From NCBI GenBank assembly GCA_043511425.1, contig CP121331.1, positions 1,529,983-1,593,982 on the forward strand: a DNA stretch of 64,000 nt, in the 5' to 3' direction. Source of the stretch: Sphingobacteriales bacterium (GTDB lineage: Bacteria > Bacteroidota > Bacteroidia > NS11-12g > UBA9320). A program made the position numbers and the translations under genes. Below are positions 1-59,631 of the stretch, piece after piece. Within the stretch, counting starts at the first letter, position 1. Each line of letters begins with the position of its first letter. The notes beneath the pieces were generated by a model, which saw only the letters and a program-made list of their open reading frames with translations, was not told where the DNA came from and did not search any database.

Positions 1-596
1 ACGGCTTGGGGTTTGTGCTCAGTGTCATTGCCACCAGCCTACTCCTCGCTAAGGCAGAAAGCACCGTATCCACGGTAAGTGCACTCGTGTACGGTGTTAG
101 TCTGATGACGCTCTATGCAGCCTCTACCCTCTACCACAGTGCCACGAAACCCAAACTCCGTAACCGCCTCAATATCTTTGACCACGCTGCTATATACGTG
201 CTCATAGCAGGTACCTACACGCCTTTTTGCTTGATTACGCTGGCGGGTAAACCCGGATGGATTTTGTTTGGATGTGTGTGGTCTTTTGCGCTCGTAGGCG
301 TCATCCTCAAGTTGTTTTTTACCGGTAGGTATGATCGCCTCAGTACGTTGATGTACATCTTTATGGGCTGCATGGTCCTCTTCGCTATCCAGCCTCTCAT
401 GGCTAATCTGCCTACAGAAGGACTGTACTGGCTTATGGGTGGTGGAGTTTCCTACATCGTAGGCGCAGGCTTTTACAGCTTTCCGCAGCGCATCCGCTAT
501 AACCACGCTATTTTCCATGTATTTGTGTTGGTGGGTAGTTTTTGTCATTTTTGGTCGGTGTATGGTTGGGTGATCTCGGTACAAAAGCATTTTTAA
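1..596 (+). CDS. Hemolysin III / PAQR family membrane protein, 5'-truncated by the window edge. The last ~20 nt run into the first repeat unit.
   Basis: ORF 6..596, 7-TM hydrophobic profile, and the conserved HxxxH-like C-terminal region (HAIFHVFVLVGSFCHFW) typical of the YqfA/Hly-III family. Confidence 0.7.
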   Translation, partial: GLGFVLSVIATSLLLAKAESTVSTVSALVYGVSLMTLYAASTLYHSATKPKLRNRLNIFDHAAIYVLIAGTYTPFCLITLAGKPGWILFGCVWSFALVGVILKLFFTGRYDRLSTLMYIFMGCMVLFAIQPLMANLPTEGLYWLMGGGVSYIVGAGFYSFPQRIRYNHAIFHVFVLVGSFCHFWSVYGWVISVQKHF

Positions 597-1000
597 TGCT
601 TTCACTCGATCTGACAAGCGTCTTCGCTATTGCCTTTTGGGTTGTTCTCTTCTCGGTACAAAAGCATTTTTGATGCTTTCACTCGATCTGACAACCATTC
701 TTTAACTGCAATTCTCGGCATAAAAGCCTCTTTGAGTGATGGCTTGTCTGTTCTCGGTACAGCCTCATCTTCGATGAGTGCCACTCGAACTGACAAGCGT
801 CTTCGTGACTACTTTCGGCTGTCGGGGCGTTGTCACTTCGAGTGATGTTTGCCGAAGGCGAAATCGTACCGAGAAGGGACAAGCGTCTTCGCATCAGCAG
901 TTCAGGTAGTTGGGAGGTTGTCACTTCGAGTGATATTCGCCAGAGGCGAAATCGTACCGAGAAGGGACAAGCATCTCAACTTCTCTTTGAACTTCTTCGC
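575..1000. repeat. Repeat cluster 1. Units: X (577-650), truncated X (651-700), a linker containing the conserved leader TGATGGCTTGTCTGTTCTCGGTAC (727-750), X (741-822), Y (826-912), and a truncated Y (913-985).
   Basis: Direct sequence comparison with clusters at 2769-2990 and 3297-4140. Shared blocks are CTCGGTAC, GACAAGCGTCTTCG, GTCACTTCGAGTGAT and CGTACCGAGAAGG. Confidence 0.85.
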
Positions 1001-1052
1001 AGGGTGTTCTCCTATTCGTGTATCTTTGTAACACTGAGGACCTTGCTAAACA

Positions 1053-2768
1053 TTGGAAGACCTCACACTATCTTTTATGACGAAACACAAATCACACTCC
1101 CGCACCAGAGCCCAAGAAAGTACCGGTGCCATACAACGCCTTTTTGTAACCATGCGCCACCTTTTTAATAGAGGCTTCTACAAACCCATGGGGGTCAGTG
1201 GCGAGACACTGCGTGAATCACTGCTTATCCTTAGTCCAGAGATCTACGGCAGTATCGCACAAGAAAAGGTAGAACTGGACGGATTACTCTACGTGATAGA
1301 CCGCCTACCGGAAGGTATAGAAGAGTGCAGATACATCAACCTGACCAGCGATGAGGGCTACTCTGATACGCACTTCACTCCCATCATACCACCGAAGCGT
1401 AGACGAAACTGCTACCGCATAGATGCCGAGCAGATGAATATAGAAATCACCCGAGGCCGCTCTGAAATCTACGATATCCTCACCCACCTTACCTTTCTAT
1501 TCATAGAGAGCCATAAGATTATGAAGCAGGTGCTTATCAATGACAAGGGCGATGTGAACCGCGATTGGCTCAAGCTAGAAGCGGCATCTCTGCAAAAGAA
1601 AAACCTAACCAAAGACGAACGTGAGGTAGCACTATCTCATACCGCCAACATTCTTGGACGCACCTTCAAAGAGGTCAGTGGCGTGTATGACAAGTTTAGC
1701 AGTGCTGAGAAGCCTGAGCGTTTCTTGGACATCATCTACTGGCTAGGAAAACTAGCGTTAGACGAGATACTGCACGAAAACAAACGTACGGTTACTTTTA
1801 GTTCGGTCCTGCGAGAGACCCTCGGGCAGCACATCCACGGCGAACGATGGGCAGACAACATCAAGGCAACACTGCACAAGCAAGGACTTCTGAACCGACC
1901 CATTCACATCATCAGCGCGAATATGCACAGTGTGCAAAACACACTCTACGCTCCAGAAGTGCTCAAAACCAAACTGAAAGGGCAATCTAAACTCCAAATT
2001 TTTGAAGAACTCAGCGCCCATTCACGACATCGAGATTCGGTCATAAAAGTAGCGACCAAAGAAGGAATGACATTCCTCAACGATACAAGCGGAAGCAACA
2101 TCGACGTACAGATTTTTGACACGGCTAAGTACACCACTGGAGCATACGCAGATAAAATAAAGCACCTCGATGCTGCCAATAAGCCTGTCATCGTCGTGAT
2201 GGACTACGCTTTTGGGGAGCAAGCCTATGAAACCATGGATGAACTACTCAAGCCGTACAAACCGGATGAAGATACTGTAATGTACCTTCAGGTGGCATCC
2301 ATCTCTATCATGGGTAAGGCGGGTATACTCACGGGTGGTAAGGGAGATATCATGATTCCTTCGTCTCACATTTTTGAAGGCTCTGCAGATAATTATCCGT
2401 TTGAAAACGGACTTCAGGTAGCCGATCTAGAAGGACATCATATAGGCGTGTACAGCGGCGCTATGATATCTGTACTCGGCACATCACTGCAAAACAAAGA
2501 TTTACTACGCTACTTCAATAGAAGTACCTGGGGAGTGATAGGGCTAGAGATGGAAGGAGCTCACTACCAAAAAGCGATACAAGCAGCTTCCAAGATACGA
2601 AAAAGCATCAGTCCGGATGTACGTGTAAACTACGCCTACTATGCGAGTGATAATCCGCTAGAAACAGGGAGCACACTGGCGAGTGGAGGACTCGGCACTA
2701 CCGGGGTGAAACCGACGTACCTCATCACGGAAAAGATATTGGATCAGGTGTTTGGTCCTTCTCGGTAA
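1053..2768 (+). CDS. Protein of 571 aa or less with a C-terminal nucleoside-phosphorylase (PNP/UDP_1) fold, AMP-nucleosidase-like. The N-terminal ~330 aa are not recognised. The true start may be an internal Met.
   Basis: C-terminal region has the hallmark G-x-I-G-L-E-M-E-G-A motif (GVIGLEMEGAHY) and GKAGILTGGKGD. Spacing and the C-terminal tail (YASDNPLETG) resemble the AMP nucleosidase catalytic domain. No Shine-Dalgarno, as is usual for Bacteroidetes. Confidence 0.4.
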   Translation: MEDLTLSFMTKHKSHSRTRAQESTGAIQRLFVTMRHLFNRGFYKPMGVSGETLRESLLILSPEIYGSIAQEKVELDGLLYVIDRLPEGIEECRYINLTSDEGYSDTHFTPIIPPKRRRNCYRIDAEQMNIEITRGRSEIYDILTHLTFLFIESHKIMKQVLINDKGDVNRDWLKLEAASLQKKNLTKDEREVALSHTANILGRTFKEVSGVYDKFSSAEKPERFLDIIYWLGKLALDEILHENKRTVTFSSVLRETLGQHIHGERWADNIKATLHKQGLLNRPIHIISANMHSVQNTLYAPEVLKTKLKGQSKLQIFEELSAHSRHRDSVIKVATKEGMTFLNDTSGSNIDVQIFDTAKYTTGAYADKIKHLDAANKPVIVVMDYAFGEQAYETMDELLKPYKPDEDTVMYLQVASISIMGKAGILTGGKGDIMIPSSHIFEGSADNYPFENGLQVADLEGHHIGVYSGAMISVLGTSLQNKDLLRYFNRSTWGVIGLEMEGAHYQKAIQAASKIRKSISPDVRVNYAYYASDNPLETGSTLASGGLGTTGVKPTYLITEKILDQVFGPSR

Positions 2769-2990
2769 AGTCTCTTCTCGGTACAGCCTCATCTTCGATG
2801 AGAGCCACTCGAAGTGACAAGCGTCTTCGCGATTACCTCTCGGGTTGTTCATTTCTCGGTACAAAAGCATCTTCGATGCTTCCACTCGAACTGACAAGCG
2901 TCTTCGCGATTGCATTTCGGTTGTCGGGAGGTTGTCACTTCGAGTGATGTTTGCCAAAGGCGAAATCGTACCGAGAAGTGAGCAACCATT
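2769..2990. repeat. Repeat cluster 2: X (2770-2857), X (2858-2925), and a truncated Y (2930-2985) ending in the CAACCATT terminal signature.
   Basis: Same unit families as clusters 1 and 3. It begins on the stop codon of the upstream CDS. Confidence 0.85.
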
Positions 2991-3006
2991 TTCTTACTTT
3001 TGACTC

Positions 3007-3303
3007 ATGAAGGAGCATCGTTATTTTATTTACATCTTACTTTGTGGAGATGGCACCTACTATACTGGCGTTACCAATAATCTTGAGCGAAGAGAAGCCG
3101 AACACTTAGACGGGTATAATGAAAGCTCGTATACACATAATCGTCAACCTACGAAACTCGTCTATCACGAAGAATTTAAATTCATAGACAAAGCAATTGC
3201 TAGAGAAAAACAGGTCAAAAAGTGGTCTCAAAAAAAGAAGAAGGCACTGATAGATGACTATGCTGATAGGCTACCAACTTTATCCAAAAAGAAGTTTGAT
3301 TGA
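3007..3303 (+). CDS. Small GIY-YIG nuclease superfamily protein (UPF0213/YhbQ-like), 98 aa, embedded between repeat clusters.
   Basis: N-terminal YFIYILLCGDGTYYTGVTNNLERREAEH matches the GIY-YIG catalytic core (GIY...YTG...N...R...EH), and the C-terminus is lysine-rich. The stop codon overlaps the conserved repeat leader. Confidence 0.8.
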   Translation: MKEHRYFIYILLCGDGTYYTGVTNNLERREAEHLDGYNESSYTHNRQPTKLVYHEEFKFIDKAIAREKQVKKWSQKKKKALIDDYADRLPTLSKKKFD

Positions 3304-4140
3304 TGGCTTGTCTGTTCTCGGTACAAAAGCATCTTCGATGCTTCCACTCGAACTGACAAGCGTCTTCGCGATTGCATTTCGGTTCTCGGAGCGTTGTCAC
3401 TTCGAGTGATGTTTGCCGAAGGCGAAATCGTACCGAGAAGTGAACAAGCGTCTTCGCGATTACCTTTCGGGTTGTTCATTTCTCGGTACAAAAGCATCTT
3501 TGATGCTTTCACTCGAAGAGACAAGCGTCTTCGCATCAGCAGTTCAGGTAATTGGGGCGTTGTCACTTCGAGTGATGTTTGCCAAAGGCAAAATCGTACC
3601 GAGAAGGGACAAGCGTCTTCGTTATTACTTTCGGTTGTCGGGGCGTTGTCACTTCGAGTGATATTTGCCGAAGGCGAAATCGTACCGAGAAGGGACAAGC
3701 GTCTTCGCGATTGCATTTCGGTTGTCGGGGCGTTGTCACTTCGAGTGATATTTGCCGAAGGCGAAATCGTACCGAGAAGGGACAAGCGTCTTCGTTATTA
3801 CTTTCGGTTGTCGAGGCGTTGTCACTTCGAGTGATATTCGCCAAAGGCGAAATCGTACCGAGAAGGGACAAGCGTCTTCGCGATTGCCTTTCGGTTGTCG
3901 GGGCGTTGTCACTTCGAGTGATATTCGCCAAAGGCGAAATCGTACCGAGAAGGGACAAGCGTCTTCGCGATTGCATTTCGGTTCTCGGAGCGTTGTCACT
4001 TCGAGTGATGTTTGCCGAAGGCGAAATCGTACCGAGAAGTGAACAAGCGTCTTCGTTATTACTTTCGGTTATCGGGAGGTTGTCACTTCGAGTGATATTC
4101 GCCAACGGCGAAATCGTACCGAGAAGGGACAACCATTCCC
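3297..4140. repeat. Repeat cluster 3. Leader (3300-3323), X (3316-3383), Y (3392-3478), X (3479-3555), then 8 tandem Y units of 86-87 bp with unit starts near 3558, 3644, 3731, 3817, 3904, 3991 and 4078. The last unit is truncated at GACAACCATTCC.
   Basis: Near-identical 87-bp periodicity read directly from the sequence. The units are open in multiple frames on both strands, which explains the spurious long ORFs in the six-frame track. Confidence 0.9.
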
Positions 4141-4208
4141 TTCCGGCTAGTCCGCTTGGCAAGAAGTTATTTTAACGCATATATTTTAAAATGAGCTTGC
4201 TCCTAGCA

Positions 4209-5072
4209 CTAACTCAGATCTACCGTGCGTGTGTAAATGACTTTACTGTCTCGTATGACTTTTATCTCGTACGCATCATTGGTATATACTGAATTATCAA
4301 ACTGATACGTGAGTCTATGCGGTCCTTTTGTCAATCGCTCGTATCGGAACAACTCTCGCACCATTCTACCTTCCATATCAAACATGGCTATTTCCAGCTT
4401 ACAATCCTCCGAAAACTGAATGTTCATAGTACCCTTTACCGCTATGCGTGGCTCTGCGTCGTAATCATATGCATAGCCGCTAAATGTTTCTGGTTTAGGC
4501 AATGGCTTACCGGTGAGCTCAGAAACATAATTGCGCAAGTGTTCAGCATTCTCCTTCTCTTTATCATAAATATTTTCGAGATCATCCTCATCTATCAGCG
4601 TCCATACTGCCTTTTGCCCAAGGCTGGCTCCTACTTTATTTTTGGACATGTAGTTTACCAACTTATAGAGCTTTTCATCTGCCTTTCCCTTCAGTGTATA
4701 GGTAGATTCAGCATCCCCAGCGGCATCACTAGACTCCATACAGTTCCCATAAAAAGGAATCTCCTTAGTCGTACCCGGCATTAGCTTCGCCAGTAGGGGG
4801 CGAGTTACCACAATATTTTGCTCCTCGTCATGATCCGCAGTAAAAACCATACCCACAGGAATGCCGATGACTACAGCCTTGGAAGTATTATTCGTTAGCA
4901 CAGCTGTTATCGGCTGCTCATAGTGCACCGAGTTCTCATTGTGTACAAATTGGGCTGAAATGACCTTTGTAGTGATGGCTTGATCAATCCATATTTTATC
5001 AGGATCCGAGGATGTAAATGCGCTCAATACGAGCAAGCTAAGTGCGGTGAGGACGTGTTTTTTTTCAATCAT
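4209..5072 (-). CDS. Hypothetical secreted protein. The signal peptide starts at MIEKKHVLTALSLLVLSAF.
   Basis: ORF with an N-terminal signal peptide and no recognisable domain. The annotated start is placed at the internal Met before the hydrophobic segment. Confidence 0.4.
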   Translation of the reverse strand: MIEKKHVLTALSLLVLSAFTSSDPDKIWIDQAITTKVISAQFVHNENSVHYEQPITAVLTNNTSKAVVIGIPVGMVFTADHDEEQNIVVTRPLLAKLMPGTTKEIPFYGNCMESSDAAGDAESTYTLKGKADEKLYKLVNYMSKNKVGASLGQKAVWTLIDEDDLENIYDKEKENAEHLRNYVSELTGKPLPKPETFSGYAYDYDAEPRIAVKGTMNIQFSEDCKLEIAMFDMEGRMVRELFRYERLTKGPHRLTYQFDNSVYTNDAYEIKVIRDSKVIYTRTVDLS

Positions 5073-5310
5073 TTTCTTAATATTTTTAAGTGTTAAAAAT
5101 AGTTCGGGTAAAAAAATAATTTGATTGGGGAGCAGCCGTCTCATCTCCAAAATCGGAGGATTAACTCAAGCACGCTCAATTTTAGAACGTACCAATTCCT
5201 CTAAATCGTAGGTATTGTTTTTAAAAATGTAGAATGTCACATTCCTCCAAAAAGGCTGAGACCTATTTAAACGCAGGTTTCGGTCTATGTATTCACGACT
5301 GTAGCACTCA

Positions 5311-49025: not shown

Positions 49026-49100
49026 GAAGTTTAAGATTAAGTCAAAGATTAAGTCAAAGATTAAGTTTAAGTTTAAATCTAAGTTTAAGTTTAGGCGGGA
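49021..49100. repeat. Short tandem simple-sequence repeats (AAGATTAAGTCA x2.5; TAAGTTTAAGTT x3) in a convergent intergenic region.
   Basis: Direct inspection. Confidence 0.6.
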
Positions 49101-58110: not shown

Positions 58111-59631
58111 CTACCTTCTTCTTCCTCCAGAACTGCTTCTGCTTGGAGTTGCCGAGCGAGATGGACTGCTACTGCGGCTTGGGCTAGCACTTCTGCTCGG
58201 AGAGCTACTTCTACTGGGGGTTGTAGCTCTTGGCGTGCTACTTCTGCTTGGTGTCGTTGCTCGTGGAGTACTACTTCTGCTTGGAGGAGTATACGACCTG
58301 CTCGGCGTGCTGCTTCTACTTGGCGTTGTTGCTCTTGGCGTAGTGCTTCTGCTAGGGGTCGTTGCCCGTGGAGTACTACTTCTGGTAGGAGGAGTATACG
58401 ACCTGCTCGGAGTGCTGCTTCTACTTGGCGTTGTTGCTCTTGGCGTGTTGCTTCTGCTCGGTGTCGTTGCTCGTGGAGTACTACTTCTGGTAGGAGGAGT
58501 ATACGACCTGCTCGGTGTGCTGCTTCTACTAGGTGTTGTAGCTCTTGGCGTGCTACTTCTGCTCGGTGTCGTTGCTCGTGGAGTTGTAGTTTCATTAGAG
58601 CGAGTAGTCCCCCCAGTTGAATTGGTACCAACGTTACCTCGAGTACCTTCGCCTCTCACCGTCCCGCTATTACCTCTAGTATTGCCTATTGGCTCTGATA
58701 CGTTTGAAGGTCTTCGCGAAGGAGTAACAACTCTTGCATCTCCAACTCCTCCAGAACCTACTTCCTCAGTAGTACCTCCTCGAGTAGTTACCTCCGTTCG
58801 TTGACCTCCTAGTCTACGTGTATTCACACTTCCACTTTGAGAGGTGGAAGTATTACCCCCTACTCGCTGCCTTGGGCTATTTGCTGCTCTATTATATCTA
58901 TCCGATCCTGAGTAGCCTAAACCTCTATTCCCGTTTCCTCCATTATTGGACGAGAATACCCCTCTATTTCCGTTCCAGCCATTGTTCCAGCCGTGATTAT
59001 TGTATCCATTCCCCCATCTGTTCCCGGAGTAGTACCCGCCGTTATTCCAACCTCCATAGTATGGATTACCACAGTAGCCTCTACCATACCAGCCATTATT
59101 CCATGGATTTCCATACCAGCCACCTGCGTATGGATTCCCCCAAGAATATCCACCGTACCAACCATTCCAGCTGTTGTACCCAAAGCTCCATCCTCCGCGT
59201 GGTCTGGTCCAATAGTTATTGCCATACCAGCCACCAGTATATGGATTTCCCCAAGATTACCCGCCGTACCAACCATTGTTCCAGCTATTGTTCCATCGAT
59301 TATCTTGATTGGCATCTTGATATCCCGCGGCATAGCCATTTTCATAGGAATACTCAAATTCTTCCCCTCTAAATCTACGGATTCTTCTTTCGTAATCCGT
59401 TTCATCTACATCAGCGTAGTCTTCTGTCGGGATAGCCTCTTGATTTTCTGATAAGCGCACAGGCTCTTGCGGTGTATATTTTTCAGGAGCTGGTTGTGGT
59501 ACTTTTTGTACAACGATAATGTCATCTTCTGGAGTATAATAGACATCATCCATAGCGGTGTTGGTCATCCTAGTGCTGGTGCAGCTTGCTAGGAAAATAG
59601 TGGCGAGAGTGAGATACGTGTATAATTTCAT
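58111..59631 (-). CDS. Low-complexity lipoprotein: signal/lipobox, then an acidic region, then a W/G/Y/N-rich repeat region, then an S/T/P/R-rich region with 3 tandem 35-aa repeats, ending GGRRR. The single frame is interrupted by one TAA at 59257-59259.
   Basis: ORFs 59257..59631 and 58111..58827 are in the same frame with no other stop between them. The stop is a TAT-to-TAA difference relative to the neighbouring repeat copy ([14 protein letters not shown] versus [13 protein letters not shown]). Confidence 0.55.
58215..58600. repeat. In-frame tandem repeat, 105 bp x about 3.5 copies (anchors at 58253, 58358, 58463 and 58568), encoding [35 protein letters not shown].
   Basis: Exact 105-bp periodicity of GTCGTTGC and GAGTATACGACCTGCTCGG in the sequence. 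Confidence 0.85.

Follow-up and report, generated by a model that had tools for sequence, protein, structure and literature searches.

A small GIY-YIG nuclease gene bracketed by TGTC-tagged hairpin repeats in a Sphingobacteriales genome: a probable divergent relative of the Ssn nucleases

The stretch of DNA analysed here, referred to as the window, comprises 64,000 nucleotides of a Sphingobacteriales genome (contig CP121331.1). Close to its start, a gene for a 98-residue GIY-YIG protein lies between clusters of palindromic repeats, which raises the question of whether gene and repeats belong together, and what the enzyme might do to the repeats. An earlier note on this DNA proposed that the protein is a mobiliser or maintenance factor for the repeats, by analogy with RAYT, and that such a pairing would be new if it is not coincidental. 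It is concluded here that the open reading frame (ORF) probably encodes a divergent member of the Ssn class of nucleases, and that the repeats around it would be the hairpins that this enzyme recognises; they carry a TGTC tag and are related to the CGTC-tagged repetitive extragenic palindrome (REP), NTS and SRM repeats.

The Ssn family was defined by Chenal et al. (2025, Nat Commun; PMC11893778) as GIY-YIG enzymes of about 94 residues, encoded by genes that are flanked by repeats. Repeats were found near 71% of the homologues, and on both sides in 42%. SsnA of Neisseria meningitidis (CAX49033.1) has 94 residues with a single GIY-YIG domain and belongs to CDD cd10448; a protein is counted as a family member if its top CDD match is cd10448, or if blastp against SsnA gives E < 1e-10 at a coverage of at least 75%. 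SsnA recognises one strand of the NTS repeat CGTCATTCCCGCGMAVGCGGGAATCYRG, which it binds exclusively in the form of single-stranded DNA (ssDNA), and cuts a few nucleotides upstream; the cytosine right after the palindrome is the base most critical for binding, and mutation of Y6, Y17 or E64 abolishes cleavage. SsnA does not bind RNA. Its homologues cut their own flanking repeats as ssDNA, and leave double-stranded DNA, RNA and the reverse strand uncut. The authors likened the NTS-ssnA-NTS layout to IS200/IS605 elements and to REPs and bacterial interspersed mosaic elements (BIMEs) with their RAYT, the latter being the analogy that the earlier note had drawn. The pairing is therefore no longer new, having been published in 2025 together with biochemistry that demonstrates site-specific ssDNA cleavage beside the repeat (PMC11893778). 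A role as mobiliser would go beyond the published activity, which is cleavage, with an effect on transformation in Neisseria. Bacteroidota are not mentioned in the main text of that paper.

The 98-residue protein has the size and the residues of an Ssn enzyme, taken as a single-domain GIY-YIG protein of about 90–150 residues with the catalytic Tyr, Tyr and Glu. Pfam PF01541 (GIY-YIG) matches residues 6–78 with E 2.7e-15 and is the sole domain. Across 17 aligned homologues Y9, Y19, G21, R29, H33 and E67 do not vary, the catalytic residues are intact, and Y9, Y19 and E67 are the counterparts of Y6, Y17 and E64 of SsnA. The nearest solved structures are the UPF0213 entries 1zg2 (E 2e-11) and 1ywl (E 7e-10), of the proteins BH0048 and EF2693; searches of NCBIfam and PHROGs gave no informative family. 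A hidden Markov model built from 51 homologues found no second GIY-YIG copy in the 64-kb window. The sequence TACTTTTG just before the start codon agrees with the -7 promoter consensus of Bacteroidetes, TAnnTTTG, and TAttTTTG or TAtTTTG similarly precedes the start codon in loci L004 and L082. The gene could thus possess its own promoter, with a very short leader.

A matrix of bit scores divides the related proteins into three groups. Group A consists of the window protein and its relatives at 48–81% identity, which come from Bacteroidia metagenome-assembled genomes where the source is identified and otherwise from environmental contigs. Group B consists of the proteins of loci L111–L115 and P0049, whose genes are flanked by canonical or near-canonical tagged palindromes, and group C of BH0048, EF2693 and E. 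coli YhbQ. Groups B and C are distant from each other (only 13–39 bits). On these scores the window protein is placed midway between the Ssn-like and the UPF0213/YhbQ proteins, in a subgroup of its own.

The repeats were located with a covariance model, which identifies 18 units in the window with E values from 1e-9 to 8e-14. All of them lie within 563–4135, in three clusters (563–973, 2765–2987 and 3305–4135), and none was found in the remaining 60 kb. The units are arranged as four head-to-head doublets, a tandem run of seven, an adjacent minus-tagged pair (563–701) and a single additional unit (2765–2827). What the earlier note had separated as X and Y repeats is one unit in two orientations, with differing apical stem-loops. 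The TGTC-A tag is present in 18 of the 18 units; the 18-mer CGAAATCGTACCGAGAAG occurs 11 times where 0.03 are expected, and GACAAGCGTCTTCG 14 times against an expectation of 0.32. The features are collected in Table 1.

Table 1. Features of the nuclease locus and its repeat clusters (positions in the window).
Feature	Position	Strand	Remarks
GIY-YIG nuclease gene (Ssn-like, group A)	3007–3303	+	98 aa, ATG start, TGA stop 3301–3303
TACTTTTG, candidate -7 promoter	2995–3002	+	5 nt before nuclease ATG; read from sequence
Unit directly upstream of nuclease gene	2925–2987	+	TGTC tag gene-distal; 54.8 bits, E 1e-9
Unit starting 2 nt past nuclease stop	3305–3366	-	tag gene-distal; best match in the window, 72.5 bits, E 7.8e-14
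Head-to-head doublet	2843–2993		minus unit, ~20-nt linker, plus unit; direct repeat of 3305–3455; repeat search
Downstream array	3305–4135		two head-to-head doublets, then seven tandem plus-tagged units, 87-nt period
Third cluster, trhA/hlyIII to DUF6909 gene	563–973		3 minus-tagged and 2 plus-tagged units; missed by the earlier note
Minus-strand-tagged (X) units, cluster 1	563–624, 640–701, 741–803	-	covariance model
Minus-strand-tagged (X) units, cluster 2	2765–2827, 2843–2904	-	covariance model; 2765–2827, 55.8 bits
Minus-strand-tagged (X) units, cluster 3	3305–3366, 3470–3531	-	covariance model
Plus-strand-tagged (Y) units, clusters 1–2	823–885, 911–973, 2925–2987	+	covariance model
Plus-strand-tagged (Y) units, array part 1	3387–3449, 3553–3615, 3639–3701, 3726–3788	+	covariance model
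Plus-strand-tagged (Y) units, array part 2	3812–3874, 3899–3961, 3986–4048, 4073–4135	+	covariance model
trhA/hlyIII	6–596	+	NCBIfam NF011669, E 1.6e-68
DUF6909 gene	1053–2768	+	PF21850, E 5.7e-60; stop 2766–2768
ORF of 313 aa	4209–5150	-	between repeat array and ABC transporter gene; convergent on plus-strand genes

The order in the first 10 kb is thus trhA, a repeat cluster, the DUF6909 gene, a second cluster, the 98-residue ORF and the long array, followed by minus-strand genes, which beyond the 313-residue ORF include an ABC transporter gene and uvrA. The small gene does indeed sit between repeats, as the earlier note had stated. The nearest units are 20 nt upstream and 2 nt downstream of it, both well within the 500 bp that define an Ssn gene flanked on both sides, and they bracket the gene tail-to-tail. 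The same layout is seen at the canonical locus L114, where CGTCATTCCCGCGAAGGCGGGAATCCAG is on the plus strand upstream and on the minus strand downstream. Moreover, 2853–2993 and 3315–3455 form direct repeats of 141 nt, 94% identical and spaced by 462 nt, with the nuclease gene between them. Folded as ssDNA, the doublet 3305–3450 has a free energy of -34.7 kcal/mol (z -4.9). Tandem Repeats Finder describes the downstream array as 7.1 copies with a period of 87 and 89% matches. The earlier observation that the nuclease stop codon lies inside the leader of the array also holds, TTTGATTGATGGCTTGTCT (3295–3313) repeating TTTGAGTGATGGCTTGTCT (731–749) at 18 of 19 positions. The other two clusters also reach into the 3' ends of genes: the first unit (563–624) encodes the last 8 codons of TrhA, and unit 2765–2827 begins within the last DUF6909 codons, an overlap also found in L003 and L004. 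Two other kinds of array were considered and rejected. In a CRISPR array the spacers would not be conserved, whereas here the linkers of about 32 nt are conserved across the 87-nt period (89% matches) and units occur in both orientations. Integron attC sites have the consensus RYYYAAC / GTTRRRY for R''/R', which the arms GTTCGAG / CGAGAAC do not fit, and there is no adjacent integrase.

Each unit is an imperfect hairpin of about 55–62 nt, of the form TTGTC-A-N-TTC-GAG-TG-[variable stem-loop]-(T)GTAC-CGA-GAA-N'-(GACAA). Besides the TGTC tag it contains a CGAG/CGAG internal loop, which is conserved, and an apical stem, which is hypervariable. Covariation was scored on an alignment of 40 diverse copies, in which 82% of the cells pair. 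The score is 0.41, compared with 0.13 ± 0.01 for shuffled alignments (0 of 500 reach 0.41); sliding the partners gives no more than 0.16. Each position of the apical stem, like pair 15–55, is filled by four or five types of pair, and the pair just outside TTC/GAA varies between G-C, C-G, U-A and A-U. Since the search pattern prescribed the arms TTCGAGTG and TACCGAGAA, their invariance is uninformative; the covarying positions were unconstrained. The covariation supports the hairpin structure. In the apical stems of 85 distinct cores, read on the tagged strand, there are 520 Watson-Crick, 41 G.T and 9 A.C pairs, and the excess of G.T over A.C implies that one particular strand is under structural selection. 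The 5'-CGAG/5'-CGAG loop has the Y-GA-R form, which in DNA should favour stable tandem sheared G.A pairs, and several of the unit loops are presumably of the GNA type, for example cGAAg. A kink-turn RNA was also considered; its tandem G.A pairs and bulge can be drawn only with three consecutive wobble pairs, and a DNA hairpin that contains the pair G21-C49 was preferred.

The association of the nuclease gene with the repeats is not coincidental. Thirteen homologues with 37–60% identity to the 98-residue protein were picked by protein similarity alone. Eight of them (44–60% identity) come from eight different neighbourhoods, and five (37–43%) from the viral contigs L111–L115. The neighbouring genes are DUF58 and DHquinase in L096, RibD and DNA ligase in L097, yjdM and mraZ in L103, Y_Y_Y and homoserine dehydrogenase in L104, and SIR2 and HsdM in L106; in L099 and L101 the gene comes after rpoC and hflX, respectively, and L108 is the eighth. 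Hairpin repeats, mostly GTC-tagged, lie within about 250 nt of the gene in 13 of 13 loci, those of L099 and L106 being of similar build and untagged. They are present on both sides except in L106 (downstream only), L111 being cut by the contig end. In L111–L115 the flanking palindromes carry a CGTC or TGTC tag. When four 12-kb loci were scanned whole, the strongest repeat families were those flanking the nuclease gene. No protein family other than GIY-YIG recurs in diverged form near the motif across the unrelated metagenome loci. The earlier suspicion of a link between GIY-YIG nucleases and such repeats is thereby substantiated.

A flank-sharing test gives the same result. For the window, 11 homologue loci and 785 control positions, the longest exact word common to the 250 nt upstream and the 250 nt downstream was determined. 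Ten of the 12 loci share words of 12–70 nt, exceeding what any control position shows, where the controls have a mean of 8.8 and a 99th percentile of 12; the window itself shares 70 nt, against a control maximum of 13. This test replaced a generic detector of GTC followed by a perfect stem, which was discarded as too noisy and blind to hairpins with an internal loop.

The repeat drifts along with the protein. Its variants include TTCGAGTG...TACCGAGAA, TTCGAGT...TATCGAGAA, TTTCGAGCGAAGCCGAGAAA, CTGAGCGGAGCCGAAG and CACTAAGTG...TATCGAAGTG. The (C/T)GTC-A tag is retained in most variants (L099 and L106 excepted), and the basal stem with the GAG...CGA core in all. The proteins of L108 and L115 fall into group B, but the repeat cores are TTTCGAG...CGAGAAA or TTTCGAAC, and these two loci connect the core of the window repeat to the canonical family.

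Some of these loci have features of separate interest. In L097 (6290–6339) the protein P0027 is 112 residues long since its 3' end enters the repeat, with a stop within ...CTCGAAATGA, and in L099 (5912–6073) a 53-residue ORF has been called across the upstream repeat. P0046 (L106, 1–5000; 48% identity) directly follows a 1073-residue SIR2_2-domain protein and an HsdM-type methylase, a neighbourhood that resembles a defence island.

Orthologues with 79–81% identity keep the order trhA-DUF6909-GIY-YIG, with units at the same intergenic positions in varying copy number and none elsewhere in the 20 kb around these loci, and every contig recovered from the clade has the nuclease gene at one syntenic site (orthologues down to about 78% identity). 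With the orthologues at one conserved locus, this looks like vertical inheritance rather than active movement. A metagenome scan with a degenerate pattern gave at least 80 loci. Among the matches listed, about 20 are the window's own locus in relatives, and at about 58 the repeat is present once or twice, the 578 kb of sequence around them containing no GIY-YIG gene. The scattered single copies are intergenic in 52 of 55 cases, and the repeat is therefore dispersed in the manner of a REP element. The same scan recovered L077 (51% identity, with a MoaC-like gene downstream) and L082 (70%), in which the nuclease gene is embedded in arrays. A strict 21-mer scan of GTDB genomes gave only one true relative, L003, a Bacteroidia metagenome-assembled genome whose contig ends in repeats; a match in a coding region of Nonlabens was a chance match. 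A scan of viral contigs for the repeat gave no matches.

Other observations concern the neighbours and the dispersed copies. The DUF6909 gene is conserved beside trhA and the nuclease gene across the clade (L004, L010 and others), and its C-terminal part (...GLEMEGAHY...) by eye resembles nucleoside phosphorylase-type motifs. The 313-residue ORF has no Pfam or NCBIfam match and is missing at the orthologous loci L004–L015 and in L032. Given the hydrophobic segment at its N-terminus, it could be a secreted or lipoprotein-type accessory gene. In L052 (3005–4131) and L031/L048, 3–5 near-identical units, 130–400 nt apart, are found inside a longer repeat with the flanks atcccactaaaaa...ttctttTGTC...GAAgtgaataaaagaa, and there is no GIY-YIG gene within the fetched flanks. 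These may represent a larger composite element that contains the hairpin.

Several observations weigh against the assignment of gene and repeats to the Ssn class. The published SRM pattern, HGTCWYN(0-2)YYVSBRHN(0-5)WNVSBRGN(0-2)RNCYNB, has no match in the window or in any of the Bacteroidota loci, and two in the positive control L114, on both flanks. The base after the palindrome is G or T in the window and not the C of the NTS, and the TGTC tag of the window lineage is often paired with a downstream GACA, unlike that of CGTC-tagged REPs. Group A is as close to group C (33–66 bits) as to group B (38–64 bits); the window protein itself scores 49–60 bits against L111–L115 and 40–57 bits against UPF0213, which is a borderline result when taken as a proxy for membership of cd10448. 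The label of UPF0213 type, given in the earlier note, is accordingly only partly correct: the protein is equally close to the repeat-flanked Ssn-like proteins, and E. coli yhbQ itself has no flanking repeats, being packed between genes with an upstream gap of 50 nt and an overlap with the downstream gene. Finally, L032 (contig OWPI01014888), 95–97% identical to the window, lacks 2733–5305, a segment of 2.57 kb that holds repeats, the nuclease gene and the 313-residue gene, and keeps the upstream repeats; L019 and L093 have one unit between the DUF6909 and ABC genes and no nuclease gene. The repeats can therefore persist locally without the nuclease gene. The difference in L032 may reflect true polymorphism or a deletion, or else an assembly that collapsed over the repeats. 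In that contig about 210 nt with only degenerate repeat remnants stand in place of the missing segment, and a 258-aa-type gene that is missing from the window lies upstream of DUF6909.

These points can be set against the other explanations of the locus. The doublet-gene-doublet unit of about 460 bp might be an active selfish element, a mobile insertion sequence or homing cassette that nicks the hairpins to copy itself and has not been domesticated. The long direct repeats on either side of the nuclease gene, which have analogues in L096, L097 and L101, would be expected of such an element, as would the occurrence of homologues in unrelated neighbourhoods, the presence or absence of the segment in L032 in spite of its high identity, and the way in which units abut or overlap the stop codons of neighbours. 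Yet the gene occupies one syntenic site throughout the clade, near-identical copies were not found in any other context, there is one copy in the 64 kb, and no ligase or recombinase function is encoded. The difference in L032 also removes the 313-residue gene, and deletion or assembly collapse could explain it; the filled and empty sites (L050/L083 and L019/L093) are too diverged to set insertion boundaries. An active element is thus unlikely; vertical inheritance of a module, with occasional loss or relocation, would account for the pattern.

It is considerably less likely that the repeats act in RNA, where they would terminate, stabilise or help to process transcripts of the trhA-DUF6909-GIY-YIG string, with the nuclease gene as a bystander. 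Each of the three clusters does follow genes that run in one direction, RNA folding of the region is strong (z -9.4), and the covariation, with its G.U pairs, is compatible with RNA. Against this, both orientations occur within one transcript, and the single copies, of which 15 are co-directional with, 12 anti-directional to, 8 divergent from and 6 convergent on the genes beside them, have no orientation bias, which points to an element that acts at the DNA rather than the mRNA level. Units in both orientations in one transcription unit, and single copies that are indifferent to transcription, point to an ssDNA hairpin. In addition, the hairpins are not followed by a T-run; there is no Rfam match in the whole window at gathering thresholds, nor in 500–4300 at E ≤ 5. 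Moreover, where the GIY-YIG gene lies in unrelated operons the repeats accompany it, and the failure of SsnA to bind RNA (PMC11893778) is also at odds with this explanation. As for mere coincidence, in which a housekeeping repair nuclease of the YhbQ/UPF0213 type happens to lie in a repeat-rich intergenic hotspot, one could cite the best structural matches, which are UPF0213 proteins, and the repeats that also flank trhA and DUF6909 and persist without the nuclease gene. The recurrence of the pairing in all 13 independent contexts, with the repeat diverging in step with the protein, and the low identity (27%) and tight packing of E. coli yhbQ, which leaves no room for such repeats, make this explanation hardly credible.

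We therefore return to the Ssn-type partnership, and propose how it might work. From homology and context we infer that the window protein would cleave ssDNA at these hairpins, and any biological role is likewise a matter of inference. By analogy with SsnA of Neisseria, binding of the hairpin would require the tagged strand to be single-stranded, as in replication, conjugation, transformation or repair. The enzyme would read the tag and the basal stem, (T)GTC-A-N-TTC, then the CGAG/CGAG loop, possibly as tandem sheared G.A pairs, and then a G-C pair, whereas in the apical stem-loop pairing alone would suffice. The nick would fall a few nucleotides 5' of the tag, within the variable flank. The tail-to-tail bracket and the direct copies of the doublet suggest that gene and repeats form a single module, passed on together by descent and moved together to new places over long periods, which would resemble RAYT with REPs or BIMEs.

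A more specific proposal, which we put forward only tentatively and consider somewhat more likely to be wrong than right, is that group A is a distinct sister lineage of Ssn that reads a two-tier hairpin, with the GTC tag, basal stem and G.A loop recognised by sequence and the freely evolving apical stem by structure only; the doublet-gene-doublet unit may still be able to move. If this is true, hairpin-guided ssDNA nucleases reach beyond cd10448 and bridge Ssn and UPF0213/YhbQ, and an enzyme for the 'orphan' CGTC/TGTC REP superfamily has been identified in Bacteroidota too.

The repeats also have consequences for annotation: they give rise to spurious ORFs of up to 199 residues, rewrite the C-termini of neighbouring proteins and break metagenome assemblies. 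The C-terminal codons or stops of the TrhA, DUF6909 and GIY-YIG genes come from repeats (566–596, 2758–2768 and 3295–3303). The C-terminus of DUF6909 varies with the abutting unit, being ...QVFGPSR* in the window, ...QVFVLGTKTS* in L004 and ...KQIFSS* in L032. The array (3258–4175) yields long spurious ORFs at 3563–4162 (minus strand, 199 residues) and 3579–4175 (plus strand, 198 residues), and metagenome contigs of relatives stop inside repeats (L001, L003, L077). Two unrelated repeats lie further along the window. At 58193–58584, in an ORF on the minus strand (58111–58827), a sequence of 105 nt recurs in tandem (3.7 copies, 90% matches) and encodes a Ser/Thr/Pro/Arg-rich repeated stretch at the C-terminal end of the ORF. 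The intergenic sequence 49027–49093 contains about 11 imperfect AAGTTT/AAGATT hexamers (taagtttaagtttaaatctaagtttaagttt). No tRNA or tmRNA was detected.

What is new here is a divergent Bacteroidia branch of the Ssn-type partnership, a two-tier hairpin that the published pattern misses, and a protein that bridges the Ssn-like and UPF0213 proteins. To our knowledge, Ssn enzymes are the only nucleases known to cut ssDNA at specific sites, and they are in development as ssDNA tools; each pair of enzyme and repeat represents a new specificity. Judging from its sequences, the lineage may indicate which parts of the hairpin are read (tag, basal stem and CGAG/CGAG loop) and which are merely paired (the apical stem). 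The intermediate position of the protein gives a hint as to the point, among small GIY-YIG nucleases, at which the recognition of repeats arose. The partnership is extended to marine Bacteroidia and tied to the CGTC/TGTC-tagged REP superfamily, to which no dedicated enzyme had been assigned in 2013.

It remains to compare the locus with known systems. It shares with RAYT/REP/BIME (REPtrons) and IS200/IS605 a small nuclease gene, single-copy and vertically inherited, that is bracketed by hairpins, its presumed ssDNA substrate, as well as doublets (similar to REPINs) and mosaic arrays. It differs in having a GIY-YIG fold and not an HUH/Y1 transposase, and a GTC tag in place of GTAG. A covalent intermediate is not expected of GIY-YIG chemistry, which leaves strand transfer unexplained. 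The locus is consequently not a REP/RAYT system proper: its units have no GTAG tag, the partner protein is GIY-YIG, and no other family recurs.

The CGTC-tagged REPs described by Di Nocera et al. (2013; PMC3733652) include dRS3 of Neisseria and RPE-4/6 of Rickettsia. Their tag is often TGTC, with CCTC as a further form, and is unpaired, their stems of 8–9 bp start with AT and carry loops of 4–5 nt, and there is a CCA tail. They are intergenic, often just past genes, mostly in head-to-head dimers and occasionally in large clusters, and Bacteroidetes are among the host phyla; no dedicated enzyme was found, and they 'apparently lack a dedicated transposase' (PMC3733652). In the window units, too, one end of the palindrome bears a (C/T)GTC tag and then an A, and there are four head-to-head doublets. 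They differ in that the stem is broken by an internal loop, there is an extra inner hairpin, and the CCA tail is missing.

With the UPF0213/YhbQ/Slx1-like proteins the window protein shares size, fold, catalytic residues and a C-terminal helix KxW/L-S/T-R-K-K-x-x-L, differing in its low identity to E. coli YhbQ, given above. From the Ssn systems it differs in the unit, which is about 55–62 nt long compared with about 28 nt and has an internal loop, a hypervariable apical hairpin and a TGTC tag, and in the host, a marine Bacteroidia, its subgroup being known here from sequence. The resemblance to Ssn extends to the whole arrangement: a single-domain GIY-YIG protein of about 95 residues, a gene flanked on both sides by oriented, tagged hairpins placed tail-to-tail, repeats that are also scattered and clustered between genes, selection on one strand, and a repeat that changes along with its protein.

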